Assembly (NCBI GenBank): GCA_963706025.1 | Contig: CAVPLM010000011.1 | Location: forward strand, 32,001 to 96,000 | Direction of reading: 5' to 3' | Length of the DNA stretch: 64,000 nt | From: an uncultured Actinomycetes bacterium | Lineage (GTDB): Bacteria; Actinomycetota; Thermoleophilia; RBG-16-64-13 | Part shown: positions 21,550 through 42,885 of the stretch, piece by piece | Numbering within the stretch: position 1 is the stretch's first letter | How the letters are laid out: each line of letters begins with the position of its first letter | Position numbers and translations under genes: made by a program | Notes under the pieces: model-generated | The model's database searches: none | What the model was told of the DNA's origin: nothing | Seen by the model: only the letters and a program-made list of their open reading frames with translations

Positions 21550-21775
21550 ATGACCACCCTCAGCATCCTCAGCTATCTCTCGCGTGCCTATCACGCCAAT
21601 CCCGAGGCCGAGGTCTCCGGGGTCGAGCTTCAGCGCGAGTTGGGCTTGGACGCGGCCACGGTCCAGGCGTGCTGTGGCCGAACTGGCCCGTCAGGGTCTG
21701 GTGGAGTGGGATCCCCTGCTCAGTAACATCTGGCTCCGCATCACCGACAAAGGCTTGGCGGCGGCGCGTCGGTAG
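21550..21775 (+). CDS. Small winged-helix-like protein (frame break ~21670)
   Basis: MTTLSILSYL...ELQRELGLD..AVAELARQGLVEW...LRITDKG. Confidence 0.6.
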
Positions 21776-21844
21776 CCCTGAGCCGCTGCGCCCCGATTGC
21801 CCTGAGCGACCACCCCCGGACCACCCCCAGGCCGCCCCTACCCC

Positions 21845-24461
21845 CTACTCCTCGGTCTGCTCCCAGGTGATCAGGGGCAGCTCGTGGGGCACCAGCACGT
21901 CGCCGTGGCAGGGGAGCACCCGCACCGCATATCCGTGCAGGCCCGAGACCCGGCTGGGCACGCTGCCCCGGTAGACGTGCTCGCCTCCCTCGCGCCCCAC
22001 CCATTCCAGCTCGGTGCCGTGGCCGTTGCTGAGCGACCCGTCCGGACGCAGGCGGCTGTAGTAGGCTTCCACCACGACTTCCTCTTGACTCAGCTCTCCC
22101 AGGTGGACCTTGGCCGTCACCTCGACGCCCTCGCCCACGGCTATGTTGAAGTGACCCCGTTCCTCCACCCCCACGACCTGCACCTCGCTCCAGGCTTTGC
22201 GCACCCGGGCCTTCCAGGCCGCAAGCTCTTTGGCCAGGGCGTATCCATCGGCTTCCAGGCGGCGGAAGTGCTCGCTCGCGGGCAGGTAGAAGCGTTCCAC
22301 GTACTGCTTGACCATGCGGTCGCCGGAGAAGGTGGGGGCCAGGATGCGGATGGAGTCCTTCATCATGGCGATCCAGCCCCGGGGTAGGCCGTCGGCGTCG
22401 CGGTCGTAGAACAGGGGGATTATCTCGCGCTCCAAGAGGGAGTAGAGAGCCTCGGCATCGACCTCGTCCTGATACCCGGTGTGGACGAATTCTTGCCCGT
22501 CTCCTATCGCCCAGCCCACGCCGGGCCGGTAGGCTTCGGCCCACCACCCGTCGAGCACCGAGAGATGGAGCCCCCCGTTGGGCACCACCTTCATGCCGCT
22601 GGTGCCGCAGGCCTCGTAGGGACGGCGGGGCGTGTTCAGCCACACGTCCACCCCCTGCACCATCATGGCCGTCTTGCGCACGTCGTAGTCTTCCAGGAAC
22701 ACCACCTGGTCGGTCAGACCCTCGCGCCGCACCATGTCCAGCATGCTCCGGATGAACTCCTTGCCCGCTCCGTCGCGGGGATGGGCCTTGCCGGCTACGA
22801 GCAGCTGCACCGGCCGGGCCTCGTCCAGGAGGAGGGCCTTGAGACGGCCCGTGTCCCGGAACAGGAGCGTGGCCCGCTTGTAGGTGGCGAAGCGCCGGGC
22901 GAAGCCGATGGTGAGGGCGTCGGGACGCAGGGGCGGATGGGTCGGCGGCCCTACTCCGGTCGCGCTCCGTCGCTCGCGCCCCTGCAGCTCGGCCTGCTCG
23001 CGCGCGTAGGCCACCAGGCGCTCGCGCAGGCGGGAGTGGGTGCGCCAGAGCTCCAGGTCGGGGATGCGTTCCACCCGCTGCCAGGCCTCCCGGGCCGAGG
23101 CGTCCTCCCGCCACCGGGGTCCCAGGTAGTGGTCGTAGAGCTGCCCCATCTCGGCCGCCATCCAGGTCTCGGTGTGCACCCCGTTGGTGATCGACTCGAT
23201 GGGCATGTCGCCCCGGGGGAAGTCCGGCCATCCGGGCTCCATCATCCGGGCCGTCACCCGGCGATGCAGGCGGCTGACGGCGTTGCGGCGCGGCGACAGG
23301 CGCAGGGCCAGCGCGGCCACGTTGAACTCCTCGTCCGGGTCGCCGTTGACCCGGCCCATGCGCATGAACTCCTCCGGCTCCAGCCCCAGTTTCTCGAGAT
23401 AGGTGCTCAGGTAGTCTTCGATCAGCTCCTGGGAGAAGAGGTCGAACCCGGCCGGGACCGGCGTGTGGGTGGTGAACAGCGTGCCCGCGCCGGTGGCTTG
23501 GCGGGCCTCCAAGAACGAGAGCCCGGCAGTACCCATCAACCCGCGCAACCGCTCCAAGCTGGCGAAGACGGCATGTCCCTCGTTGAGATGGCACATCTGC
23601 GGCTCGATGCCCAGGGCCCTGAGGGCCCGCATCCCGCCGATGCCGAGCACCAGCTCCTGGGCCAGCCGCTCCTCGGTCCCTCCGCCATACAGCTCGTTGG
23701 TGATGCGCTGGGCGGCAGGCGTCGTTCTCGGGGATCACCGTATCGAGCAGGTACAAGGGGATGCGCCCCACATCGACCTTCCACACCTTGACCCAGACGG
23801 GGCGCCCGCCCATGTCGATCAAGACCTTGAGGGGCGCGGCAGCCGCGGCGGCCGCGCCGGCGCCCGCGCCCGGACCCGGACCAGACGCCCCGGCGCTCGG
23901 GGCCGGCACCGGCCGTATGGGCAGCGTGCTCAGATCGTGCACGTGATACTCCTCGTGCTGCCACCCGCCGTCGTCGAGGTGTTGCACGAAGTAGCCCTTG
24001 TTGTAGAGGAGACCGACCGCCACCAGAGGTATGTCCAGCCCGCTGGCCGCTTTGAGATGATCGCCGGCCAGCACGCCCAGACCCCCGGAATAGATGGGCA
24101 GGGAGGCGGTCAGCCCGTACTCCATGCAGAAGTAGGCCACGCGTAGGTCGGCGCGCTCGGGATACCGCAGCCGGAACCACCCCGGCTCGGTCATGTAGCG
24201 GCGCAGATCGTCCAGCGCCCCATCCAGGTGGGTGAGGAAGGCCGCGTCGCCGGCCGCCTGCTCCAGCCGCTCCCGCGAGATGCGGCGCAGCAGCGACACC
24301 GGGTTCCCGGCGTACTTCTCCAGCATCTCCGGGTCGAGGTGCTGGAACACCTTGAAGGCCCGGCTGTCCCAGGTCCAACGCAGGTTGTACGCCAGCTCCT
24401 CGAGCCCGCTCAGGCGCGCGGGAACCTCGGGATGGACGCTGAAAGTATGGATCTTTAGCAC
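21845..24461 (-). CDS. glgP: Alpha-glucan (glycogen) phosphorylase (frame break ~23715)
   Basis: YSGGLGVLAGD, HLNEGH, ARRFATYKRA, EACGTSGMK PLP lysine, LDGWW. Confidence 0.95.
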
Positions 24462-28209: not shown

Positions 28210-30762
28210 CTATCCCCCCAGCCGGTACGTCTCAAACCCCGCAGCCGCCATACGCTCGGGTACATCGCGGACTTGCCTCCCGATCCTTTTCCTTCTCGGC
28301 CTCGGACAGCTGGTCCCAGGGCACCATGCACGGATGCGTCTTCTCGACGTCGCTCTTGACCGGCCCGAAGACGTAACCGGCGGCCCGCTTCTGCGCCCAC
28401 CAGCGCTCGTGCTCCATCTGGGCGAGCTTCTCTATCTCCGCCGCACTGAACTCCACGTGCCGGGGGCTTTCATCCTTGGCCGGGAGAAAGCCGCAGCCGA
28501 TCGCCTCGAGGTAGGTTGGGAACCAATCCGCCTGCTCGCGGTTGGACTCGCGATCCTCCTCGGTCAGATCGTCCCAGGGAAGCATGCGCTGACCCTCCTC
28601 CGGCGTAGTGGCGACGTTGTCTTCGGTGAAAGCTTCATGAATGGCCTGCGCGATCCTCTCTCGGGCGGCGCCGACCAGGACGTCGCGCGCTACCAGCCGC
28701 ATGAACGTCTCGGCATCGACGTGCAGTTCCAATTGAGGGGCCGGAGGGAGAGCCGACTGCTCGAAGATCTCTCGGCCACTCAGCATGCTCATGTCGATCA
28801 GGGATTCGAGCGAGCGCATGCCGTGCCGGTACTCGGGGATCTTGATCAGAGCTCGGAGCACGCCCGGGTCGATCCTGATGCGGCCCGAATGGTCCATGAG
28901 CTGTCTGGCGCCCATCTCGAGCTGAATGCGCAAAGCCACCGCGCGCCTGATCAGGTAGAGAAGATCCTCGTCGCCCCTCTGGTTGATCCCCAGGATGTCG
29001 ACGTATCCGCGGAGACGGCTGACGAAATCGGGACCTTTGACCATGCGGAACCGCTCGATCGTCTGGCCGTCGCCTCCCTCGCGCGTGAATTCGGCGAGAG
29101 AGTCGCTCGTGGCTCCGGCGAAGACGAAGATGGCCTTACCGATGGGGTGGCTCGACTCCCCGTCCTTGAAGCGCCCGTCCTGCATGGGATCGAGGAAGAA
29201 CTTGAGCCACCCGAGCGGTGCCCCCTCGAACGAGGCGTCGAACTCGTCGAAGAAGACGAGAGGCACCTTGCCCTCGAGCACAACGTCCCGCACGCGGTGG
29301 AGCGCGCTTGCCAGGTCGCGCGGAGACTCCCACTGGGCGACGTTGAAGCTCACGCTCTGAACCAAGCCCTCTCCGACGCTCTTGGCGATCTGCGTGACGG
29401 AGAAGGTCTTGCCGGCCCCGGGCGGTCCGAAGACGCCGATGCAGAGAGGACGCTTGACGTAGCCGGCCGCCAGGTATTCCGAGATGAGGTTCTTGACGCT
29501 GCGGTAGCCTTCGATCTCGGTACGGTCGATGGTCTTGAGCTTGCCGAAGCGTCCCACCGGAACCCGGTCCAGAACCGGGTCGGTGCCCCTCTCCACATAG
29601 TTGAGAGCCACCGCCTCCAGGCGTTCGTGCGTCGACTCCTGCAGGATGGTCCAGAAGTCGGGATCGGCCGAGGTGAGACTGCTCTTGACGGGGACCACGA
29701 CGTCGGCGATGACCGGATCGTGGGGAGAGGCCTCGAAGAGCTCGTCGAGGGTCCAGTCCGGATCCCGGCCCGACGTGCCGAACCCCGCCACAAGCAGCCG
29801 GCGCGAGGCGGCGATGCCGGCGCGGGCCCCCTCTCCCACCTGATCGAGGCCCCCGTTGGCCACCTGGCCGGCAAGGGCGGCAAGGAAGGCAGTACCCAGC
29901 CCCATCATCTCGCCCGGGTGTTGCTCGTCGTACTCGCCCTCGATGCGGGCCGGATCGTAATAGAGGACCGCCGTGGTCCGATCGCCGGCCACGGTGCGGT
30001 GGATGGCGCCGTCCAGCCCGAAACGGACGACCAGGTTGCGGCAGGCGGCAAGGGCGGCAAGCCTGCGGTTGTTGGCCATCTGCCACACGAAATCCTTGGC
30101 GGTGCGCTCCCAGGAGAGCCGACGAGAGACGTTCGCCCCTTCGCAGCGCAGGTCGTCCCCATCGATGACCACGACCAGCCGATCGGAGTGGCTGCGGGAA
30201 AGCTCCTGGAACAGGGGGCCCACGGCCAGAGGCCGGCTCATCTTGAGCAGGATGAGCGGCTGGCTGCCGGCAGCGACAAGGGCCTGCGGCCAGACCGATG
30301 GTTCGTCGCGGAAGCCGTTGCCGGCGTCGTCCAGGATGACAAGGTCCGCAAGCGGGTCGTCGGAAACGAGTCTCAAGGGCTGCAGTCGACCGCCGTCCGG
30401 CCCGGTGTAGCCGCAGTTGTCCTTGACGCGCCACACCTGGTCCCTGCCGTCGCCGTCAGCCGAGACGGCGAAAGCGAGCAAGCCGAACGTGGGAGTGAAG
30501 CACGTCGGTGGCCGGGACTCCCTCAAGGTCGAGAATCTCGGGAGCGGCCACGGTGGCGATGCCCGCTCCCCGCAACAGGCCGGCGAGCAGAAGCGCGCCC
30601 CCGGGCCTGGCGGTCAGCCGGATGCCGTCATGGAGTTGCCAGTTGCTGGAGCAGGTGGCATTGGTGGCGCGGCAGCCCCTCATGTCTTGCAGCCACCGGC
30701 CATTCGAGCCAATCGACGGTGACATCGCCTGCGACTACGGCCTTGAGCTGCTTCGTCTCCAT
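28210..30762 (-). CDS. PfkB-like N-terminal domain + AAA+ ATPase + RyR-repeat protein (frame breaks at both ends)
   Basis: VVAGDVTVDW...GGALLLA; GPPGAGKTF Walker A; VFFDEFD Walker B; LAQMEHERW...KTHPCMVPWDQLSEAEKEKD RyR motif. Confidence 0.85.
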
Positions 30763-30936
30763 AGTGCCCCTCATCGATGAAGAAACAGGCGTCCGCATGG
30801 CAGAGATCATTCCACTTACACGTTATCACTCAAGAACAAGAGGCGCAGGCAATATAATCCGGCAAGACAAGGTCCAATGCCAAGTGCCCGAGAGGTTGAG
30901 CTCCCCAAGAGCGAGTGCCCCACGAAAGGAGTCTTC

Positions 30937-31380
30937 GTGAAATCGATCCTGGTCGGTGTGGATGGTTCCGAATGTTCGCTCAGGGCCCTTGATTTTGCCG
31001 CCGAGGAAGCGGCCCTTCGTGGCGCTCGCCTTCGCATCGTGTGTGTATGGGATATGCCAGAAATAGGGTATGCGGTGTCGGCCTATCCAGAGGAGGTCTT
31101 AGAGGACGTCTTCGAGGGTATCCGGGAAGAAGCAGAAGCAATAGTGGCGAAGGCTCGTGCCCGCGCAGCCGAACTCAAACCAACGCTCACCGTCAAAACC
31201 AAGGTCGTCAAGGGTCACCCAGGTGCCATCCTTGTCAGAGAAGCGAAAAGCGCAGACCTGGTTATAGTGGGAAACCGCGGCCGAGGCGGCGTTGCAAGCC
31301 TCCTTCTCGGCTCGGTCAGCCACCACGTGGTTCACCTCGCCCAGTGCCCGGTGGTCGTCGTGCGGGTCGCTGCGTGTTAG
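30937..31380 (+). CDS. Universal stress protein (UspA family)
   Basis: ILVGVDGS, VGNRGRGG..LLGSVS..CPVVVV. Confidence 0.95.
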   Translation: MKSILVGVDGSECSLRALDFAAEEAALRGARLRIVCVWDMPEIGYAVSAYPEEVLEDVFEGIREEAEAIVAKARARAAELKPTLTVKTKVVKGHPGAILVREAKSADLVIVGNRGRGGVASLLLGSVSHHVVHLAQCPVVVVRVAAC

Positions 31381-31455
31381 CTGCCAGATGAAGCGCACAG
31401 GTGGTGCGTCCAGGGGGAATCGGCTCTTGACCTACGGCTGCGAGTTGGTGTCTCA

Positions 31456-31709
31456 TGGAGGACGCCACCGAGGAGATCTGGGACCAGCGTATGGAAGTGG
31501 CGGGCATGCTGGGCAACGTGTCGCTGATGAACGGCGAACCCATCGTGCACGTGCACATCACGGTGGCCGACGAGCAAGGCCGCTGCTACGGCGGCCACCT
31601 GGGGCACAACACCCGGGTCTTCAACCTGGAGATCCTGCTGACTACCCTGTCCGGTCCCCCGGTCACCCGCAAGATGGACCCCCAGACGGGACTGACTATC
31701 TGGCATTGA
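31456..31709 (+). pseudogene. Diverged, internally deleted copy of the DUF296 locus (7537-8040)
   Basis: Matches 7537-7567 joined to 7818-8040; 250-bp deletion at GACCAAC microhomology. Confidence 0.9.
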
Positions 31710-31764
31710 GCCTCCGGCAAGCTTCCGGCACTGACCCTTTAGTTGAGGTCCAGGTCGTTTCGGC

Positions 31765-33364
31765 CTAAGGCGTGTAGGCCCAGGTGTCGTTGAGAAGCGA
31801 GTTATCGCCCGGATCTCCCCCGAACATGATCAACCGGCCGCTCGGATGGATCGAAGACCATCGACTGACCGAAACGTGCGGCCGGGAGCGCCCCCCCTGG
31901 GTCCAACTCGGTCCAGGTGTTCGTGCTCGGGTCGTAGGCCCAGGTGTCGTTCCTGACGTCGCTTATGTGAGCGCCTGCCAGTCCTCACGAACATGATCAG
32001 CCGCCCACTCGACTGGATCGAACACCATCGACTGCCACCAGCTAGCGGGGGGCCGCGGCCCGGACGGGCTGAGATTCGTCCACGTGTTGGCGACCGGGTC
32101 GTAGGCCCAGGTGTCGTCCAAGCCCTCCAAGCTCGAGGATGGGTTCGGGCTACCCGACAACCCTCCGAACATGATCACCCGGCCGCTGGAGGGATCGTAG
32201 GCCATGGCCTGAGCGCTACGCGCAGGAGGCAGTGTCCCTTGCGGGCTGAGGTCGGTCCACGTGTTGGCGACCGGGTCATAGGCCCAGGTGTCGTTGAGAC
32301 GAACACCGAAGTCGTCGAACCCCCCGAACATGATCACCCGGCCGCTGGTGGGGTCGTAGGCCATAGCGTCATCGGCGCGTCCAACGGGTGACTGCCCCGC
32401 CGGCGCTGAGCTCGCCCCAGGTGTTGGTCGTGGGATTGTAGACCCAGGTGTCATTGAGGACCCCACCGATCTCGTCGTTGAAATCTCCTCCGTCGCCGCA
32501 TGAGCCTCCGAAGAGGAACAGCCGGTGCGTCGACGGATCGTAGGCCATCGAGTGGCAGAAAGCGCCCAGGAGGCAGCGCCCCGGATGGACGGATTCTGGT
32601 CCACGTGCTCGCGGCCGGGTCGTAAACCCAGGTGTCATTTGCGTTCGCGGCGGATAACGAGCCTCCGAACAAGATCACGCGCCCGGTATCGGGATCGTAC
32701 GCCATCGCGTGCCATGCCCGCGGCTGGGGCAGGGTCCCCTGCGGGTCGAGCTTGGTCCAGAAGTTGTGGCTGGGCGGACTGGACGCATAGATGCCACCGA
32801 CGGTGGCGGCCGCGATGACCAGAAGCGCCGCGAAGGTGATGGCCCAGGTCCTGCGGTTCCATCTTTTCGGCCTCGCGGCCTTCTCGCCGGCAGAGGCCCC
32901 GGTTTCATCGCCGGTTGCGGCAGCCGTCATTCCGTCTTCTGCCGGGCTCTCGACCGCAGCCCGGGCCCGGTCAGTTGTCCCCGCACGGCGGCCAGGATCT
33001 CTCCCTGCTTGCCCTCCACTCCTCCGCGGACTTCCAGCCACTGCCACAGGTTGAGGTAGTACTCGATCGAGGCACTGGGAACGACGTCGTCTATGTGGAG
33101 GGAGAGCACGGGCCGGTCGTAGGCTATCGCCCGTTCGATCTCGCGCAGCACGTAGGGGGAGCTGTTGGCCGAGGTGGAGAAGATGAGCAGCACAAGGTCC
33201 GACGTGCGGATTGCATCGAGAGTCCCGGCAGCCGGGTCTGTCCCCTCCTTCAGGTCGCGGGGGGCCATCCAACAGCCGATACCCTCTGCCTCGAGCATAT
33301 CGCAGACGTGGGAGGCGACCTCGCGATCCTCCGCGGCGTGGCTCACGAAGACCTGATGCGCCAA
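31765..33364 (-). CDS. TIR - TM - Kelch beta-propeller protein (subtype 2), frame broken
   Basis: HQVFVSHA..SPYVLREIERA TIR; WAITFAALLVIAAATVGG TM; repeated MAYDP..FGG..DTWxYDP blades, ends WAYTP*. Confidence 0.88.
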
Positions 33365-33389
33365 AGACGCCCCCTTCACTGCTGTCGGA

Positions 33390-34935
33390 TCACGGAGTAT
33401 AGACCCAGGTATCTCCTAGGTCACCCTCGGTGCTGGAGAACCCTCCGAACATGACCATCTGCCCGCTGGACGGCTCGTAGACCATCGACTGATCTTCCCG
33501 GGCGGAAGGCAAGGTTCCCTCCGGGGTGATGTCGCTCCACGTGTTCACCGTGGGATCGTAGGCCCAGGTGTCGTTGGACCCGCCTCCGAACATGATCATG
33601 AGGCCGCTGGCGGCATCGTAGACGAGGGACATAGCCAGTCTCGCGAAGGGCACCGCGCCTTCCGGGCTGAGGTCGGTCCAGGTGTTGGCGGCCAGGTCGT
33701 AGGCCCAGGTGTCGTTGAAAGTGACCGTGTCTCTGAATCCTCCGAACACGATCAGCCGGTTGCGCGACCGGGTCGCAGGCCATAGAGTGCAAGGCGCGCG
33801 CCGGGGGCAGCGTTCCCGAGGGCTTGAGCTCGGTCCAGGTGTTGGCGGCGGGGTCATAGGCCCAGGTGTCGTTGAGGAACTCGCACTGTCGGCGCCGTCA
33901 CCCGACTGCCCCCCGAACATGATCAACCGGCCGCTTGAGGCATCGTAGACCATCTGGTGACCGGCGCGCGCAGGGGGCAGGGTTCCTGCCGGGCTCAGTT
34001 CGGTCCAGGTGTTGGCGGCCGGATAGTAGGCCCAGGTGTCGTTGAAACGAGTCCCCGCCCCATCGAATCCTCCGAACATGATCAGCCGATGGGTAGCCGG
34101 ATCGTACGCCATCGCTGGGTTCACGCGCGCTATGGGGAAGCGGCCCCGCGGGTTTCAGCTCGGTCCAGGTGTTGGCGGCGGGATCGTAGGCCCAGGTGTC
34201 GTGGAGGAGATTCGCCCGAGCGGCATCGCTCTTGAGAGTCGGGCCACCGCCGAACATGATCATCCTATGGGTGTCGGAATCGTATGCCATCTCGTGGCCG
34301 CTGCGCGCCGACGGCGTCCCCTCTGGGTAGAGTTCGGTCCACGTGTTGTGCCCCATCAGGCCCGGCGACGCCATGTGGCCGCCGGTATGTGTGGCCGCCC
34401 AGGTCCCTCCAGCCGCTGCCGCGGCGACGAGCACGACGGCGGCCGCCGCGAGGATCCACCACCGTCGGCGGGCCCAGCGGCGCATCTTGACAGCCTTCCT
34501 GGGGACACCGGCCTGCGATTGCCCCGCAGCTTTCGATGCACGGATCGCGTCCCGCACGGCGGCTACGATCTCCTCTTGCTTCTTCTCGACTTCCGCTGCG
34601 GCCTTGAGCTTCTGCCACACGTTCACGTAGTACTCGATGGAGGAGTTGGGCACGGTGTCGTCCGTGCGCAGGGCGAGCACGGGCCGCTGGTAGGCCACGG
34701 CCCGCTCGATCTCGCGAAGCACGTAGGGAGAGGCGTTGGAGAAGGTGGAGAAGATCAGGACCACCAGTTGCGAGTTTCGGATCGCATCCATGATGGCCGC
34801 GGCGTAGTCCGTGCCCGCTTCGACATCACGGGGGGCCATCCAGCAGACGATGCCGTCCGCCTCGAGCAGCGCGCAGACGTGGGCGGCCGTGTCGGCATCC
34901 TCCGTGGCGTAGCTCACGAAGACCTGATGCGCCAT
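33390..34935 (-). CDS. TIR - TM - Kelch beta-propeller protein (subtype 1), frame broken
   Basis: MAHQVFVSYA..SPYVLREIERA; RRRWWILAAAAVVLVAAAAAGG TM; six Kelch blades, ends WVYTP*. Confidence 0.9.
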
Positions 34936-35082
34936 GGACACCTCCGCTGCGTCCGGACTGCAACCGAGCTCATAACACACAATAGAGCAGCGGCCGTCGA
35001 CGCGCTAGTGGCGAGTCACAGCCCGCGTCTTACGCCTTCGCAAGAGATAGCGCCGCGGAGAGGTCGGAAAGGGGACCGTACG

Positions 35083-35271
35083 ATGGGCACCATGATCGGA
35101 ATCGTCGGAACGCTGGGAACAGTATTCGATCTCCTCCAGGGGCTCTGGGACTCGTTGGACAGGGCCGGGCTGGGCCAGGACAAGAGGGAGAAGATCATTG
35201 GTGACTTCTTGGATCGTTTGAGGCACGGGGAGCGGCTTACCAGGCTGGGACTACAGTGTCGTCATGCCTAG
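35083..35271 (+). CDS. Small hypothetical protein (62 aa)
   Basis: AAAGGGG RBS then MGTMIGIVGTLGTVFDLLQGLW..; protein-like composition. Confidence 0.45.
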   Translation: MGTMIGIVGTLGTVFDLLQGLWDSLDRAGLGQDKREKIIGDFLDRLRHGERLTRLGLQCRHA

Positions 35272-35317
35272 GACACAAGGGTCATGGGGGAGGAAACCGG
35301 CCGGTTGCTTTCGACCA

Positions 35318-35440
35318 TCCTCCCGCGTCTGCGCCATGCTCGAGGGGAACGGCATCGGCTGCTGGTCAGCATCGTGCGATGCAACGGCCAGGAAAGACAA
35401 GGCGGCCGCGAATCTTCAGGCCCTCCACACCTCGGACCTG
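35318..35440 (+). pseudogene. Decayed TIR fragment, subtype 2
   Basis: SSRVCAMLEGNGIGCWSASCDATARKDKAAANLQALHTSDL aligns to ATRVCTLLEADGIGCWLASRDATSSEDKASATIEAIRRSDL of the 38251 gene. Confidence 0.75.
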
Positions 35441-35567
35441 GGGACGGCTGGCTCTCGGTAGCCCGCGCTGTTAGCCGGAGGGGACCTGCAGGACCTTCTC
35501 CAGATAGGTCGCAGCCGTGTCAGAATAAGAAGACTTGTGCCACAATCCGTCGCATGAGAGGGCCGCT

Positions 35568-36231
35568 ATGACCGATGAAGTCGCCGCCGAGTATCGCTAC
35601 TGGGCGTTCATCAGCTATAGCAGCAAAGATGAGGCGCACGCCAAGTGGCTTAACCACGCAATTGAGACGTTCGGCGTGCCGGCAAAACTCGTCGAGCACA
35701 ACCACAAGACGCCAACTGGCGAGTCGGCACCTAGAACGGCTCCGTCCGGTCTTTCGTGATCGTGACGAACTACCTGCATCATCCGATCTGGGTCACACCA
35801 TCCAAGATGCACTGGTCGCCTCGCGCTATCTGATCGTGGTCTGTTCTCCCAATGCGGCCACGTCCGTGTGGGTGAACCGGGAGGTGGAGACGTTCGCCGC
35901 AATGGGTCGCAGGGAACGCATCTTGGCGTTCATCGTAGATGGCGAGCCCTATAGTGGTGGTGAGCAGGAATGCTTCCCGCCGGCGCTGAAACAGCAGGAA
36001 CCCCTCGCGGCTGACGCCCGACGGCTTGGTGATGGCAGGGCGGACGCCCGCTTGAAGCTCCTTGCCGGGATGCTCGGGGTGGGCTTCGACGCGCTGAAGG
36101 ACCGCGAACGCCGTCGCCGCATGCGCCGCCTCCAGATCGTGACCGCAGTGGCCACTGCATTGGTTCTTGTCTTCGCCATCTTGGCGTACTTCGCATACTC
36201 CCAGCGGCAAGGCCCGGGTCCGGTTCATTGA
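35568..36231 (+). CDS. TIR_2-type domain + single TM, lacking a C-terminal sensor (truncated or adaptor); frame break ~35735
   Basis: YWAFISYS, FRDRDELPASSDLG, CSPNAATSVWVNREV, EPLAADAR, TM IVTAVATALVLVFAILAYF. Confidence 0.8.
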
Positions 36232-36503
36232 CATTGGGGCTCACTCGCCTTATGATTCGTGTTGCCACCCCTGGGCTATATGCGCAGGGCGCGAAGCCGC
36301 TTCAGGGCGGTTTCGCATTTTTGTGGGGCCATGTTCTATCCTACAGTCTTAAATAGCGGCTGTGGAAATCGTTTAACCAGCCGCAGAGATGCGCACTCCG
36401 CCTCCGCTGACGTCGCACTCCTGCGGATAGAACAAAGCTGCTGACCTTAGGCCCGTTCACACCCTCCCCAGGAGCGCAAATCCCCTGATTCTGCCCCCCA
36501 TCC

Positions 36504-36577
36504 CTTCGGGGTCCGGGCTCGAACCGGGGACACCACAATCATCAGTCATGAACTCTGCCCGACCGAGCCACCACGTC
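36504..36577 (-). pseudogene. Degenerate tRNA (tRNA-Phe-like scaffold, anticodon now GAT)
   Basis: GACGTGG TG GCTC..GAGT CATGA CTGATGA TTGTG GTGTC CCCGG TTCGAGC CCGGA CCCCGAA; D, anticodon and T arms recognisable, acceptor stem broken. Confidence 0.65.
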
Positions 36578-36687
36578 GCTGGTGGAGGCTGCCCGGTCAG
36601 CGGCCTGACGATAAGCGCAACCTACAGTTGACTTACCCGGCTCTGTAGTGTCTTATGGATTCTGTCGCAGTCGTCGGGAGCGAGGTG

Positions 36688-38249
36688 ATGTTCTTGGCGC
36701 ATCAGGTCTTCTTGAGCCACGCTACGGAGGACCGGGACACGGCCCTCCAAGTCTGCGCCGCGCTCGAGCCGGAAGGGATCCGCTGCTGGATAGCACCTCG
36801 CGACGTGCCGGCGGGCACCGACTACGCCGCCGCTATCCTGGACGGCATCCGGACCTCAGACCTTGTACTGCTTATCTTCTCCGCGCATGCCGACGCCTCC
36901 CCCTACGTTCTGCGTGAGATCGAGCGAGCCGTGGCATATAAGAGGCCGGTGCTCGCACTCCGGATAGATGACGCTGCCCTCAGTTCCTCCATCGAGTATT
37001 ACGTGACCCTGTGGCGGAAGCTCGATGCATCCGCCGGGATCGACACGAAACAGGCCGAGATCGTGGCCGCCGTGCAGGCCGCGCTGGTCGCTGGGGCGCC
37101 CGCTTCAGAATCAGGGTTGAGGGCGGCAAAGCGCTCCCGCCTGCTGGGTGGTTGGAGTCGGAGGAAGAAGGCCATCGCCCTCGCTGCGGTGGCGACAGCA
37201 GTAGTGGCGATCGGCCTCGGTCTGGGGCTCGGCCTTGGTCTCGCCCAGAACCACGGGGCCTCGGGAGCCGGCCTGACACCCGGCCAAGTGATCTGGAAGA
37301 ACCTCCACCCGAAGGAACCGCTGCCTCCCGCGCGGTACCTTTCAGAGATGGTCAATGACCCGACCAGCGGACGGCTGATCATGTTCGGTGGGGCCGTGGA
37401 CACGCCGGAAGGCGGTCGGGAGCTCATCGGCGACACGTGGGCCTACGATCCTTCGGCCAACACGTGGACCGAGCTTGGCCCCTCGGGTCCCCCTTCTGCC
37501 CGTGAGGCCCCGGCAATGGCCTACGACCCGGCTACTCGCAGGGTCATCATGTTCGGTGGCGGAGAGTCCATCGACGGTACCAGCTCAGCGATACCTGGGC
37601 CTACGATCCGGCGGCCAACACCTGGGCGCAACTCAGCCCCGCAGGCCCGGCGCCGATGGGTCGAAGCGGCCACGTGATGGTCTATGATCCCCCCAGCGGC
37701 CGCATACTCATGTGGGGAGGCGCGGGGGGAGAGGGGGTCTTCTTCAATGACCTCTGGGCTTTCGACGCAACCACGAACACGTGGACCGAGCTCATACCCA
37801 CAGGAGCTCTGCCTGCGGGGCGCTCCCAAGCGGCCATGGCCTACGATCCGGTCACGCGCAGGATGATCCTCTTCGGCGGCTGGGCTGACGAGTCCGCATT
37901 CGGCGACACCTGGGCCTACGACCCGGTGGCGAACGCCTGGACCGAGCTCCAGCCTGGGGGCACGCTGCCGTCTCCGCGCTACGCGCACGAGTTGGTCTGC
38001 GACCCCTCGCGCGGGCTCCTCGTAATGTTCGGTGGTGGAGATTTCTCTCGTGATTACAACGATACCTGGACCTACGATCCGGCGGCGAACATCTGGACCA
38101 GACTCAGCGCTCTTCACGGCGCGGCGCCCTCCCGGCGCGGGGCACACGCGATGGTCTACGACCCTTCGGGAGGACGGCTGATAGTGTTCGGGGGCGACTC
38201 GTCCGCGCACGGCATCCTCAACGACACCTGGGCCTGCACTTTTGAATGA
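36688..38249 (+). CDS. TIR - TM - Kelch beta-propeller protein (subtype 1), frame break ~37590
   Basis: HQVFLSHA..SPYVLREIERA; AIALAAVATAVVAIGLGLGLGLG TM; six blades ending DTWACTFE*. Confidence 0.9.
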
Positions 38250-38250
38250 C

Positions 38251-39804
38251 ATGCCCGCCGGTAACGTCTTCCTAAGCTACACCGGGCGGGACGAAGAGGC
38301 GGCCACGCGGGTCTGCACCCTGCTCGAGGCAGACGGCATCGGGTGCTGGCTGGCTTCGCGCGACGCGACATCGAGCGAGGACAAGGCGTCCGCGACCATC
38401 GAGGCCATCCGCAGATCGGACCTCGTGCTCCTCATCTTCTCCGCTTCTGCGAACTCATCGCCCTACGTTCTGCGTGAGATCGAAAGGGCGATCGCGTATG
38501 AGCGCCCTGTCCTTTCCATACATCTTGACGACGCCGTTCCCAACCCTTCCCTCGAGTACTACCTGAACCTGTGGCAATGGCTCGACGCCCCCGGCAGTCT
38601 CGAGGAAAGGCGGGAGGAGATCGTCGCGGCGGTTCGCCGGCAGTTGGCAGGCACGCCCGGACCGCAACTGTTCGAGCCGGATTCACCGGCTCCGTCTGAG
38701 ACCACGGAAGAGCCTGAGCCACTGCCGCCCGAGGACGTGCCGCACCCCCGTCGACGCCGGCTCAGGACGTGGATCATCGCCTTGGCCTTGGCAGTCTTGG
38801 TGGCAGCCGTCAGCCTCGGGCTTATCCTCGGGCTGGGCGTGACGCGAGAAGGGGACATCTGGACCGAACTCACCCCAGAGGGCGCCCGCCCGCCGCTCGC
38901 GGCGGCCACGACATGGTCCTCGACTCCTCTGCCGGTCTCCTGATAGTCTTCGGGGGGAAACGGCGCGCGCAGGAGACTTCAACGATACCTGGGCCTACGA
39001 TCCGCTCGCCAACACCTGGAGCGTCCTTGCCCCGTCGGGCGCACAGCCTGAGGCACGGTATGACCACGCGATGGCGTACGATGAGGCCACCGATCAGGTC
39101 ATCATGTTCGGCGGATACAGCGGCCCCGAGGACGGTACCGGCGACTACTACGACGACACCTGGGCGTACGACGCCAAGGCCAACGCCTGGACCAAGCTCG
39201 AGCCGTCCGGAGCAGTGCCCCCCGCTCGCGCGTACCACACCATGGCCTACGATCCGGTGACCCAGCGGACGATCATGTTCGGGGGAGCCGGGACGGAGGA
39301 CGTCTTCGCCGACACCTGGGCGTACGACGCCAAGGCCAACGCCTGGACCAAGCTCGAGCCGTCCGGCGCTGTGCCCCCCGCCCGCGCGGGCCATACCATG
39401 GCGTATGACCCGGACGTGCATAGAATGATCCTGTTCGGCGGCGGCATAGTTACAACTGCAAGACTCGACGACACCTGGGCTTACGATCCCGACCTCAAAC
39501 ACCTGGGTCGACCTCACCCCGGCGGGGAGCCCGCCTGCGGGTCGATTGGGTGCGGCGATGACCTATGACTCCGCCAGCGACCGAATCGTCATGTTCGGAG
39601 GGGACCGACGAAGTGGGCCTCTGCTCCGATACCTGGGCTTACGACTCGAGCAAGAACCGCTGGACCGAACTGAACTCGGAGACCCATCCCGTCCCGCGCT
39701 TCAATCTCTGCATGGCCTACGACCCTTCCACGGAACGCGTCATCATGTTCGGAGGGACCAGCCCGGGGGGCGCCCGGTCGGATACGTGGGTCTGCACACC
39801 ATAG
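38251..39804 (+). CDS. TIR - TM - Kelch beta-propeller protein (subtype 2), frame broken
   Basis: NVFLSY..SPYVLREIERA; WIIALALAVLVAAVSLGLILG TM; six blades ending DTWVCTP*. Confidence 0.9.
39154..39366 (+). repeat. 57-bp identical direct repeat between adjacent Kelch blades
   Basis: 39154-39210 = 39310-39366 (CGACACCTGGGCGTACGACGCC...GAGCCGTCCGG), 156 bp apart. Confidence 0.9.
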
Positions 39805-40199: not shown

Positions 40200-40504
40200 C
40201 CGGGTTTTCGCGTCTTCGGGGCGAGTTCGGGGGCAAGTCGGGGGCAAACTCGATAGCAGTCAAGGGACTTGGACGGACGCAAACGGACTACGCAACAGAA
40301 TGGCGTCCCCTGGAACTCCGTCTTGTGAAATCCGTTGGATTGACGCAGAGTGGAACCGGCCTATACTGAATCCATGCGGGGAGTGAGTCACTCTCCCGAT
40401 TTGTAGCTCGGGGAGGCCGTGAAGACGGGGCCTTGCACGAGTTTCGACCCGCGCCTCGCTCCGTGCGGACACCGATTCTGCCCGAGGGGGAGGTGCGTCC
40501 TATG
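40200..40504 (+). promoter_or_regulatory. Conserved ~300-bp upstream module copy 1 (arm-type-like repeats, promoter, structured leader, RBS)
   Basis: Homologous to reverse complement of 62845-63149; TTGACG-16-TATACT at 40340-40367. Confidence 0.8.
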
Positions 40505-41536
40505 AAGCCCAAAAGAAGTTTTGTGCTGGGCTTGCGTGTGCAGGTAGCGTCGAGCGTGGGCAGCCGGAGGAGGCGCATAGCTGGCCTCGCTGCGGTCCTA
40601 TCGGTGCTAATACTCGTGCCGCTTATTTCGGCCTGTGGCAATCCCAAACTGTCCTATGTCTTCGTCGACGGCGACCACCAAAAATACAAACTGAGCATGG
40701 CTGTCGCCGAAAAGGGTCCGAACGGGGAAACGTTGGGAACGGTCACGCTTGAAGCCCTGCTGCATATTGATGCCAACATCGACAAACCGCATCGCTGTGC
40801 GAGTTTCGTTACGGTTGATTACGAAGACGTGAAGATAAGCACGACTGGCTCCGCCCAGAGCAGCGGGAACCAAATCCCAACAGCCTACTTCCACTTGTGC
40901 GAGGACCGTTTGCTCACTTTCAGCGGGCCAGCGCCGAGAGGTGACAACTATTCCGTCGAACTTGCGAGGACCGGTCCCAACGGTTCATTAAGCGTCATGC
41001 TGCTGAACACGCTGGTCGGCAAGTGCTTCGCACAACCGCGACGCGATTCCCTTCACGAGTTGACGACTGGGAACGAGTGGACAACGACGCGGCAGCTTCC
41101 GGACGAATTCATGACGTATCTGTACACGGGCAAACGTCCGACTGACGACCAGAACAGGGAAACCACGCAGGTAGAGGTGACTGGGCTGACGGGGGAAGGT
41201 GCGTTCGCGGAGTTGGCCTGGTCTTCGGTCACTCCCCTTTCGTGGCAGGTCGACCGGACTGAAAGGCTTCTGGAGTCGGGCATGGACCCCTCGGAAATCG
41301 CTGTTCTTACCGCTGATGAGGGGGAGGCGACCATGGCGATGTCCGGTTCGCACAATTGCTCGGGGACCGCCTTCGTTCGAACGTCAGACGGGTGGCCGCA
41401 ACGAGCATCGATAGACCGGATGACCGTTGACCTCACTTCTTCGTGGGGCTACCCAGACGATCTCTCGTCGTCCGAGGAGGCTGGGCCAGTGGAAATGATT
41501 CTGGAGATTACGGGGTCAATCGAAGCGATTTCCTAG
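40502..41536 (+). CDS. Putative lipoprotein
   Basis: GGAGGT RBS, hydrophobic stretch then LISAC lipobox; lower GC. Confidence 0.75.
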   Translation: MKPKRSFVLGLRVQVASSVGSRRRRIAGLAAVLSVLILVPLISACGNPKLSYVFVDGDHQKYKLSMAVAEKGPNGETLGTVTLEALLHIDANIDKPHRCASFVTVDYEDVKISTTGSAQSSGNQIPTAYFHLCEDRLLTFSGPAPRGDNYSVELARTGPNGSLSVMLLNTLVGKCFAQPRRDSLHELTTGNEWTTTRQLPDEFMTYLYTGKRPTDDQNRETTQVEVTGLTGEGAFAELAWSSVTPLSWQVDRTERLLESGMDPSEIAVLTADEGEATMAMSGSHNCSGTAFVRTSDGWPQRASIDRMTVDLTSSWGYPDDLSSSEEAGPVEMILEITGSIEAIS

Positions 41537-41892: not shown

Positions 41893-42885
41893 ATGGTCGT
41901 CTCGGGAAGAAAGCTTGGACTCTTGGCGGCAGTTGGGCTTCTTCTCGTTGCACTTCTCCTAGTTGCCTGTACCAATGCCCCCTCGACCCCCACGACCACC
42001 CTCCGAACGAGCACCTCGACCTCCACCTCCGTCTCCAAGACTCCCGGCATCTCCTCGACCTCCAGCCTCCCGCACATCGGCGAGACACAATCGACCATCC
42101 TCATAAGTAGGACAAGCCCGTGGGAGGACTATTACCTAGCACTCCACCGCCTGGACGCGCTCCTGCAAGCGGACGACCTACGGATGTCCCAGGTAGCGAC
42201 GGACATCAACCGTACCGCCCCCGACATACCACAGGCGGTCCACGACGAAATTGGGAAAATGTTCATCGCGCTCCAGCAAGCGGAGATGACCCTCGACCAG
42301 GTACCGGACATTCCCGCTGAGTATCGCGAAGCCCACGACCTACTGCTCCAAGCGGCCAACCACATGCTCATGAGGATTAACCAGACCGGCGTCGCCGTCC
42401 AGGATATCTTGAACAGCGGGGACCCCACATCCGGCAACCCCTACTTCCAAGTGGCGCGCAACTATCGGGACTACTACCGGCAGACGTTTGCGCAGTACCA
42501 AGCCGCACTTCCAGGAGGCCAACCGCCCACCGCCGCGGGCGCACAGGAAGGACCCACCCCCAGCCCCCCCTCGACCGCCGATACCAGTCCGGAGGCGCGT
42601 CTAGTCTCCGACCTCTCCGGTGATGGCTACGCCGCCTACGTGGTGAACCACCTGAACGAGGGCGGGACGACGGTCATCCTGGTCGGGGTCTGGGTGGACA
42701 TCTACATCTACGAGAAGACTCAGACCACCTACGATGCCATCTACGAGCATGCCATCTCGTCAGCGAAGCAGCATGGGGTTGCCGCCGGTGAAGGAGAGCT
42801 GCTTAGGGTTGAGCTGGTAGAGGCGCCACCCGGACAGAAGATAATCGAGTCACGAGACTTCGACCTCAGTGGCGCTGAGGGGTGA
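41893..42885 (+). CDS. Putative lipoprotein with Ser/Thr-rich linker and helical domain
   Basis: GAGGAGG RBS, LLVAC lipobox, PSTPTTT linker. Confidence 0.8.
   Translation: MVVSGRKLGLLAAVGLLLVALLLVACTNAPSTPTTTLRTSTSTSTSVSKTPGISSTSSLPHIGETQSTILISRTSPWEDYYLALHRLDALLQADDLRMSQVATDINRTAPDIPQAVHDEIGKMFIALQQAEMTLDQVPDIPAEYREAHDLLLQAANHMLMRINQTGVAVQDILNSGDPTSGNPYFQVARNYRDYYRQTFAQYQAALPGGQPPTAAGAQEGPTPSPPSTADTSPEARLVSDLSGDGYAAYVVNHLNEGGTTVILVGVWVDIYIYEKTQTTYDAIYEHAISSAKQHGVAAGEGELLRVELVEAPPGQKIIESRDFDLSGAEG

Follow-up and report, generated by a model that had tools for sequence, protein, structure and literature searches.

What would a bacterium gain from a row of TIR domains that are each joined, through what appears to be a single membrane-spanning helix, to a Kelch propeller on the outer side of the cell, and what in the same cell would read the products of such TIRs? 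The question is raised by a locus in a 64,000-nucleotide stretch of DNA from an uncultured Actinomycetes bacterium (Thermoleophilia, RBG-16-64-13; assembly GCA_963706025.1, contig CAVPLM010000011.1, positions 32,001 to 96,000 of the forward strand), the whole of which we call the window and whose numbering we use throughout. Four genes, here g1 to g4, each encode a TIR_2 domain, a predicted transmembrane (TM) helix and a six-bladed Kelch propeller: g1 at 31765..33364 on the minus strand (1600 nucleotides, TTG start, TAG stop), g2 at 33390..34935 on the minus strand (1546 nucleotides, ATG start, TGA stop), g3 at 36688..38249 on the plus strand (1562 nucleotides, ATG start, TGA stop) and g4 at 38251..39804 on the plus strand (1554 nucleotides, ATG start, TAG stop). 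They form two divergent pairs, with g2 followed by g1 reading leftwards and g3 followed by g4 reading rightwards. The main new result of this work is that a partner gene of RyR or cyclase type is linked to such TIR-Kelch arrays. The reading we prefer, which we hold with about as much belief as doubt, is that array and RyR partner would make up a two-part, Thoeris-like system that senses outside the cell.

Pfam TIR_2 (PF13676) matches g1, g2, g3 and g4 with E-values of 3.9e-18, 9.2e-19, 3.6e-20 and 2.8e-17 (63.8-73.1 bits against a cut-off of 28), and the remainder of each gene downstream of the TIR domain matches Kelch families. In frameshift-aware alignments, each of which took the best uninterrupted homologue as its reference (P0024 for g1, P0002 for g2), all four genes show the same order of TIR domain, Arg/Lys patch, single hydrophobic helix and six FGG...DTW blades. 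An earlier, sequence-only reading of the window had proposed four TIR-TM-Kelch paralogues with just these boundaries, an SPYVLRE motif in each of them, and a Pfam search as one check; the search, with TIR_2 and Kelch families in every gene, and the alignments bear the proposal out, and the motif is present four times out of four in the longer form SPYVLREIERA. The TIR domains of the array are 52-67% identical to that of g3. Genome-wide there are six TIR_2 matches, one in each of g1 to g4 and two in a fifth TIR gene described below, and that all six fall within the one locus is far beyond chance.

The Glu of the LRE motif falls in one column with the second Glu of ROQ1 'CLEEL', and it also aligns with RPS4 'VRELE' and with Cat1 'WDELE'; this Glu we take to be the catalytic residue of those three TIRs, as the sequence-only reading had expected of its position. 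How widely this holds can be judged from 70 homologues of 483-579 residues with both TIR_2 and Kelch, gathered among 120 listed matches of a g3 fragment; all 70, among the matches listed, are uninterrupted TIR-TM-Kelch proteins, and the family is real. In their sources they are called 'TIR domain-containing protein' or, by automatic naming, 'N-acetylneuraminic acid mutarotase', and no NCBIfam model scores above its cut-off. Across these 70 proteins the Glu column holds 55 Glu, 14 Asp and one Gln. The 14 receptors with Asp are a recognisable subgroup marked by VLRDIERA, and the Asp and Gln receptors may be inactive partners or have an altered chemistry.

Variation within the family is distributed unevenly. 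Mean pairwise identity is 0.62 for the TIR domain, 0.29 for the linker and 0.49 for the Kelch domain, whose six FGG...DTW units (profile positions 204-517) find alignments to entire Kelch domains in solved structures, at E-values down to 1e-34. The loops that follow FGG in the propeller are hypervariable, with a mean top-residue frequency of 0.25 and insertions of up to 13 columns, against 0.54 for the loops before each blade's first strand and 0.72 for the strands and short turns. In Kelch propellers both sets of loops lie on one face, which is the usual binding face. One locus (L003:10408-12948, plus strand) encodes an 847-residue TIR-TM-Kelch protein whose 10-11 Kelch repeat matches are about double the usual count, and which may form a double propeller.

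Topology was assessed over the same 70 proteins with our own hydrophobicity and charge script (Kyte-Doolittle, 19-residue segments) in place of a dedicated predictor. There is one hydrophobic segment per protein, with a median start at residue 170 and a median length of 24; its 19-residue mean is at least 1.83, and that of the next most hydrophobic segment is at most 1.86. The 15 residues before this helix hold a median of five Lys and Arg, against one after it, and the count is higher before it in 69 of 70 proteins, none of which has a signal-peptide-like N-terminus. By the positive-inside rule, then, the TIR domain is predicted to be cytoplasmic and the propeller to lie outside, in a single-pass, N-in protein of type II. 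The same arrangement had been drawn from the window alone, and the charge bias and the single hydrophobic segment lend it support.

The two halves of the molecule also occur apart. In seven loci (L009, L013-L017, L020) the TM-Kelch module stands behind an N-terminal GYF_2 domain instead of a TIR, and in another (L023) the Kelch module stands behind SLH, an S-layer homology domain that binds the cell wall; these combinations point to an outside propeller that has been joined to different inside or wall-anchoring modules. Conversely, 16 of 17 distant TIR homologues have one TM helix after the TIR, followed by BON, PPC, LCCL, an NHL-type propeller, FGE-sulfatase or other domains. On these domain orders TIR-TM-Kelch is one member of a wider class of predicted N-terminal-TIR single-pass proteins. 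A further case is a 535-residue TIR - long linker - TM - PknH_C protein (L175:7947-9551, minus strand) encoded directly downstream of a 793-residue RyR protein; by its domain content it is a second kind of putative membrane TIR receptor, one with a known extracytoplasmic sensor domain.

At E-values of 1e-15 or better, the TIR subtype of the array is found in three of 41 genomes, namely the window's own and two of the three others of its genus, and in none of the 37 from other genera of the family and class; it recurs in further Actinomycetota metagenome-assembled genomes (MAGs). The loci typically carry arrays of two to five copies. Each paralogue in the window is closer to relatives in other genomes than to the other members of its own array, and the array is therefore old.

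In the window the neighbour of the array is a gene at 28210..30762 on the minus strand, encoding a protein of about 846 residues with an N-terminal domain of no known family, an AAA ATPase domain (Pfam 1.4e-5) and a RyR domain (PF02026; 1e-14, 55 bits against a cut-off of 27.4), which we call AAA-RyR; it is 93% identical to the 846-residue reference P0121, the alignment to which located its frame breaks. Its N-terminal 350 residues match nothing in Pfam even at an E-value of 5, nothing in NCBIfam and nothing usable in the Atlas by way of the homologue P0134, and a profile search of the N-terminus against solved structures returned, among the 60 matches listed, RyR matches only. A possible PfkB-like kinase motif was rejected when hhalign against the genome's own PfkB gene gave a probability of 0.3%.

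The sequence-only reading had suggested a survey of gene neighbourhoods. Full TIR-TM-Kelch genes are present in 14 loci (the window, L001-L007, L010, L011 and L087-L090), and a conserved partner adjoins the array in 11 of them. Six loci (the window, L003, L005, L006, L088, L089) have an NTPase bearing RyR, in the form of AAA-RyR in the window, L003 (95% identical) and L005 (85% identical), and in the form of Guanylate_cyc-AAA_16-RyR in L006, L088 and L089. Five more have TIR-Guanylate_cyc-AAA_16-TPR (L001, L004, L007 and L010 by Pfam; L002 in part, by tblastn), the TIR of which shows 63-68% protein identity to the g3 TIR (tblastn). In L088, a short-read contig, a cyclase-AAA_16-RyR gene on the minus strand comes first, next to it a gene for a protein binding cyclic nucleotide monophosphates (cNMP_binding), and after that three uninterrupted TIR-TM-Kelch genes. 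Seven longest-contig sizes are common to the TIR-Kelch and the AAA-RyR matches (35227, 17547, 14059, 6032, 5723, 41187 and 5530), which suggests further contigs shared by the two. Among the 41 relatives, RyR exceeds its cut-off in two only (G000 and G003), in both no more than a few kb from the TIR array, at about 2.9 kb in G003.

Linkage of RyR to TIR genes extends beyond this family. Among 401 Actinomycetota genomes RyR occurs in 12 and TIR_2 in 80 (154 matches, a tally that includes six unpublished genomes). Leaving out the window's genome, 11 have RyR, and in seven of these a TIR_2 match lies on the same contig 0.08-7.3 kb from RyR (0.08, 0.47, 0.56, 0.85, 3.4, 4.2 and 7.3 kb in G422, G208, G270, G343, G282, G334 and G069), where about 0.09 such cases would be expected by chance, given how many TIR matches these genomes contain and how large they are; G208, G270 and G282 belong to one genus, leaving five independent genera. 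The other four have no same-contig TIR_2 match (G359, on a contig of 3.5 kb, and G400, G054 and G211). Pfam places an AAA-RyR protein next to a TIR-TPR protein in L169, the RyR protein of L175 next to TIR-TM-PknH_C, and a RyR protein next to a TIR protein in L177. Far from the Actinomycetota, a row in Methanomicrobiales (Methanoregula) encodes a Vps4-like AAA protein, a 254-residue TIR protein and a 565-residue TrkA_N-RyR protein (L070:8449-13715 and L072:5509-9192, by Pfam; L149 and L154 match this row by tblastn), and the pairing of TIR with RyR thus reaches the archaea; a PPK2 gene comes next in L070. Another genome encodes a 920-residue RelA_SpoT-TPR-SLOG(LSDAT_prok)-RyR protein (L171:8978-11737, plus strand), in which two putative nucleotide-signal-binding domains are joined to an alarmone synthetase domain; a TIR_2 search of this genome found no match at E-values of 1e-6 or better.

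Could such a RyR domain bind a product of TIR enzymes? Two preprints of 2026 on phage proteins give a basis for comparison. The phage protein RyDEP (PF02026) cleaves or binds 2'cADPR and 3'cADPR, forms of cyclic ADP-ribose (cADPR), through contacts with H75, W78, H100 and D117, of which the His/Asp pair is the catalytic glycosidase dyad (PMC13232231). For phage RyR Tad the ligands are 1''-3' gcADPR, bound at 43 nM, 1''-2' gcADPR and cADPR, all contacted through H129/W132, K147/H154 and K170/D171 (10.64898/2026.06.04.730250). Counted from the first His in the residue numbers so reported, the contacts lie at +3, +25 and +42 in both proteins, with +18 and +41 in addition in RyR Tad. The RyR domain of the window has H, W, K, H, K and D at 0, +3, +18, +25, +41 and +42, which is the phage spacing when judged by published residue numbers rather than by direct alignment; the His and the Asp that RyDEP uses for catalysis are both retained. 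The H, W, H, D spacing is likewise kept in the RyR proteins of L088, L006 and L070, and in an alignment of 46 AAA-RyR homologues (A3) the first His (H781) is invariant and the Asp (D823) is present in at least 90%. A strict regular expression for the RyR contacts, matched by 32 of 128 sequences, was rejected as a measure of conservation for being too strict. The accessible parts of the two phage RyR preprints describe no host RyR genes linked to TIR genes.

Taken together, these observations suggest a system of two parts. The TIR-Kelch proteins would be its sensor and signal-making part, like ThsB. A ligand outside the cell would bind the variable face of the propeller and cause the receptors to cluster, whereupon the clustered TIR domains would, to judge by their family and by the conserved Glu, turn nicotinamide adenine dinucleotide (NAD+) into a signal derived from ADP-ribose, for example a cADPR isomer. 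The divergently encoded partner would read this signal through its RyR domain and act through its NTPase and N-terminal module, and in some loci, as the order of genes suggests, the signal would feed a cyclase and a cNMP-binding protein. Several diverged receptor paralogues for each partner would widen the range of ligands. That RyR binds the TIR signal is our inference by analogy with the phage RyR proteins, the gene linkage being the part that is directly seen. The conservation of RyR, cyclase and STAND partners does argue for second-messenger signalling of the Thoeris kind rather than for simple depletion of NAD+. The role is most likely defence, or the recognition of foreign particles or cells, with which the paralogue arrays, the variable loops and the patchy distribution all fit.

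The likeness to Thoeris (ThsB with a ThsA-type effector) is one of plan. There, as here, one or several TIR genes stand beside one gene with a domain that would read a TIR-made signal derived from ADP-ribose, the position of the catalytic Glu is kept, and several diverged TIR paralogues may serve one effector. The ThsB proteins known to us are cytosolic, whereas the TIR-Kelch proteins would be anchored in the membrane with their propeller outside, and the putative reader here is RyR.

Several observations weigh against the two-part, outward-sensing system. Glu is absent at the presumed catalytic position in 15 of the 70 homologues. The partner has no RyR domain in five of the 14 loci, and no partner was found within the stretches examined of L011 (22 kb), L087 (6.6 kb) and L090 (5.9 kb); nor are the loci wholly independent, since L002/L010, L003/L011 and L006/L007 each come from one MAG and L087-L090 possibly from one sample series. 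With its RyDEP-like His/Asp pair, the RyR domain of the window could destroy the signal rather than sense it. PADLOC, named as a check by the sequence-only reading, gave only weak and partial ThsB matches on the TIR domains (E 7e-5 to 9e-3) and none on the partner, so that neither ThsB nor ThsA is called, and NCBIfam has nothing above its cut-offs for the system. Pfam and PADLOC scans found no known defence genes around the locus in the window, so the role may instead be one of ordinary environmental sensing. Finally, none of the four genes is a continuous frame in this assembly, which has six breaks in g1, three in g2, one in g3 and four in g4, and the AAA-RyR gene has three more, near 30666, 30470 and 28270.

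The last of these points raises the strongest of the competing explanations, one that concerns the state of these copies and stands beside the others rather than against them: the locus in this genome might be a decaying array of true pseudogenes. The sequence-only reading had mentioned frame breaks, and there are indeed 14 across g1 to g4 (near 32964, 32558, 32401, 32010, 31982 and 31843 in g1; 34113, 33877 and 33759 in g2; 37583 in g3, within a loop after FGG; and 38897, 38962, 39497 and 39606 in g4). With at least 18 breaks over about 11.6 kb, a remnant of a further TIR at 35318-35440, and rpoC and rpoB open over 1444 and 1253 residues, respectively, in an assembly that is therefore not poor everywhere, decay deserves a hearing. 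Nonetheless, every break in g1 to g4 is an insertion or deletion of one or two bases, the read-throughs of these genes and of AAA-RyR contain no in-frame stop, and 12 of the 17 breaks in the five genes are of the +1 class. Long homopolymers are mostly lacking from the contexts of the 14 breaks. The Kelch blade repeats were rejected as the sole cause of error, because the non-repetitive AAA-RyR gene is also broken.

Comparison with orthologues favours breaks that are errors or that arose very recently. P0053, a near-identical orthologue of g4 from another assembly (538 residues), is uninterrupted across all four g4 breaks. The g3 orthologues P0008 (97% identical) and P0042 (90% identical) are broken at other positions, and P0042 reads through the position of the g3 break. 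A read-based check went part of the way: a 600-nucleotide contig of run X4 (record 29) bridges the g3 break with 17 fewer letters, bringing both sides into one frame, and no other break was bridged. None of the runs contained this strain, the highest share of words being 0.29, and four of them gave short contigs of relatives, a point that leaves room for decay. Locus L011, 88% identical to window positions 31482-35038 over 3598 nucleotides, speaks on both sides. Its g2 orthologue has four breaks and its g1 orthologue has 12 breaks and two in-frame stops, as a decaying gene might, and these positions mostly differ from the window's. The ratio of nonsynonymous to synonymous substitution rates (dN/dS) between the two is 0.245 overall for g2 (0.07 in the TIR, 0.24 in the Kelch domain) and 0.43 overall for g1 (0.18 and 0.41), low values that point to purifying selection on g1 and g2 through most of the period after these lineages diverged.

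Broken genes also occur outside the TIR locus. A DUF3417/alpha-glucan phosphorylase (glgP-like) gene at 21741-24461 on the minus strand is split into two frames near 23714, its N-terminal part lying in a 906-residue open reading frame (ORF) and Phosphorylase profile positions 219-580 in a 601-residue ORF. A codon-position Viterbi model, a rough one, of whose candidates glgP alone was checked, proposes frame switches that lie away from any stop at 35 points of the 128-kb contig, 26 of which form a dense run of same-strand switches in G000:C11:3521-31170, and at 22 points over 130 kb of C3, where G000:C3:611130-621829, 11 kb long, has a like run of 15. The same model was rejected as a measure of break density at the TIR-Kelch locus, most of which it called non-coding. 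The assembly thus seems to have patches of poor consensus or of decayed genes, and contigs of up to 1.2 Mb suggest that it was made from long reads. That an ordinary gene is broken too, and that the model finds other break-dense patches, in what may be a long-read assembly, tells against a decay peculiar to this array. Overall, we think that most of the breaks are probably errors of consensus or assembly, because in-frame stops are lacking, because dN/dS lies at 0.07-0.43 when orthologues with breaks at other places are compared, and because some orthologues are intact; true decay of the array is a less likely explanation that we still take seriously.

The remaining alternatives concern what intact proteins would do. 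One is that the TIR domains are direct suicide effectors, whose clustering would deplete NAD+ in an abortive infection, with RyR as a scavenger or brake that hydrolyses stray products of cADPR type. Many bacterial TIR effectors are plain NADases, the TIR fold and the conserved Glu are as such an effector would have them, and the RyDEP-like dyad in the window's RyR domain is what a hydrolase would need. A brake would not, however, require an 846-residue ATPase, and in L006, L088 and L089 RyR occupies the C-terminal sensor position of a cyclase-AAA_16 protein, with the cNMP-binding gene next to it in L088, an arrangement that resembles a relay and not a brake. We regard this explanation as improbable.

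We are more doubtful again that the TIR domains lack enzyme activity and serve as adaptors, in the manner of animal Toll-like receptors, recruiting the TIR of a cytoplasmic TIR-cyclase-AAA_16-TPR protein through TIR-TIR contact. Such a partner, with a TIR of the same subtype, does occur in the five loci named above, and 15 of the 70 receptors lack the Glu. Yet the window's genome has no TIR-cyclase protein, all six of its TIR_2 matches being accounted for in the TIR-Kelch locus; the six loci with RyR partners have partners without a TIR; and the critical position holds Glu or Asp in 69 of 70 receptors. Least of all do we credit the propeller with being an extracytoplasmic enzyme or lectin of envelope sugar metabolism (of mutarotase or oxidase type) that senses nothing and has the TIR as mere anchor or regulator, since, for all that one source labels 46 of the 70 homologues 'N-acetylneuraminic acid mutarotase' and that NANM and YjhT match weakly, the mutarotase matches fall far short of what their models require (51 bits where 416 are needed, and 49.5 where 256 are), variability is greatest in the propeller loops, as opposed to a conserved active site, and the conserved partners and paralogue arrays would go unexplained.

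Other known systems resemble the proposed TIR-Kelch/RyR system in part. For CBASS and Pycsar, the PADLOC SAVED_TIR model matches only weakly and on the TIR part (E 1e-7 to 1e-5), no TIR effector of these systems is called, and the cyclase in some TIR-Kelch loci is of a different kind, a class III Guanylate_cyc fused to AAA_16. Phage RyDEP and RyR Tad share the PF02026 family and the spacing of the ligand-contact residues with the RyR partner; they are small anti-defence sponges or glycosidases, whereas the partner is a host protein, joins RyR to AAA or cyclase-AAA_16 modules, has TIR genes linked to its own, and would be a receptor rather than a counter-measure. STAND/AAA_16 NTPases with cyclase and TPR are matched by the alternative partners, which are Guanylate_cyc-AAA_16 proteins with C-terminal TPR or RyR and a partial TIGR03903 match below its cut-off; what sets these apart is a TIR of the receptor subtype at the N-terminus or RyR at the C-terminus, together with a place beside TIR-TM-Kelch arrays. 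PknH-type kinases have a cytoplasmic output domain, one TM helix and an outside sensor, as would the TIR-TM-PknH_C protein beside the RyR protein of L175, in which a TIR takes the place of the kinase.

The sequence-only reading had likened these proteins to animal Toll-like receptors with Kelch replacing the leucine-rich repeats (LRR), and as a functional likeness only this stands: both would have an outside repeat domain, a single TM helix and an inside TIR, and in some loci a second TIR protein is a possible adaptor. The orientation is reversed, since TIR-Kelch has its TIR at the N-terminus in a type II protein and a Kelch ectodomain, and a Toll-like receptor is of type I, with LRR and a C-terminal TIR; the bacterial TIR, moreover, is probably enzymatic, and we take the resemblance as analogy and not as homology of whole proteins. 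The system had also seemed uncharacterised, and we found no description in the literature of the TIR-TM-Kelch architecture, of bacterial membrane TIR receptors or of host TIR-RyR systems. The word 'Kelch' is absent from the accessible part of a TIR survey (PMC7075850), and both 'RyR' and 'Kelch' are absent from the main text of a Thoeris survey (10.64898/2025.12.03.692087), whose supplementary tables, which may list such operons, lie outside this count.

The locus in the window holds several further elements. Between the divergent gene pairs is a middle region of 1.7 kb with three of them. The TIR remnant already mentioned (35318..35440, plus strand) spans 41 residues in a three-frame translation and matches residues 17-57 of P0002 by tblastn (58.5% identity, E 4e-9). 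A fifth, divergent TIR-TM gene without Kelch (35568..36231, plus strand) has TIR_2 at 3e-9 on a 218-residue ORF, a hydrophobic tail and at least one frame break, near 35733-35737, with its N-terminal piece in a different frame; tblastn found no match to it across 74 related loci at an E-value of 1e-8. ARAGORN predicts a tRNA-Ile (GAT) at 36505..36576 on the minus strand, adjoining the divergent TIR-TM gene and the remnant, and it may mark an old point of insertion or rearrangement. Between the AAA-RyR gene and g1 lie a Usp gene (30877-31380, plus strand; Pfam 6.8e-34) and a PCC-domain gene (31455-31709, plus strand; Pfam 2.1e-13). Usp also adjoins AAA-RyR in L005, and PCC adjoins the g1 orthologue in L011; whether the two belong to the TIR-Kelch system is uncertain. 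Just 3' of g4 are two plus-strand ORFs without a Pfam family and with lipoprotein-like N-termini (40433-41536 and 41893-42885), and a relative of the first, 74% identical, lies at a distance of 3 kb from the two TIR-Kelch genes of L002.

The pairing of TIR and RyR genes invites a wider view, which we put forward tentatively and with less confidence than the two-part system itself. Host TIR proteins, many of them single-pass membrane receptors with Kelch, PknH_C or other sensors, may make cADPR-type messengers that are read by host RyR proteins (AAA, STAND, cyclase and TrkA fusions), in an axis widespread among prokaryotes; TIR-TM-Kelch proteins would then be cell-surface receptors of immunity or recognition, and the animal link between cADPR and the ryanodine receptor may descend from an ancient TIR-RyR pairing. 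To our knowledge, bacterial TIR systems sense trouble inside the cell. If the reading proposed here is true, a TIR enzyme coupled to a propeller on the cell's exterior would allow alarm, or recognition of a partner, before entry. The conserved gene pairing of TIR with host RyR supplies a definite candidate, open to test, for the reader that the signal has so far lacked, and carries two findings of 2026 on phage RyR proteins over to the host side, and operons of the L088 type, with their cyclase-AAA_16-RyR protein, cNMP-binding protein and three receptors, offer uninterrupted genes for a direct test. The pairing also bears on an old question, namely whether molecules of the cADPR type act directly on RyR domains.

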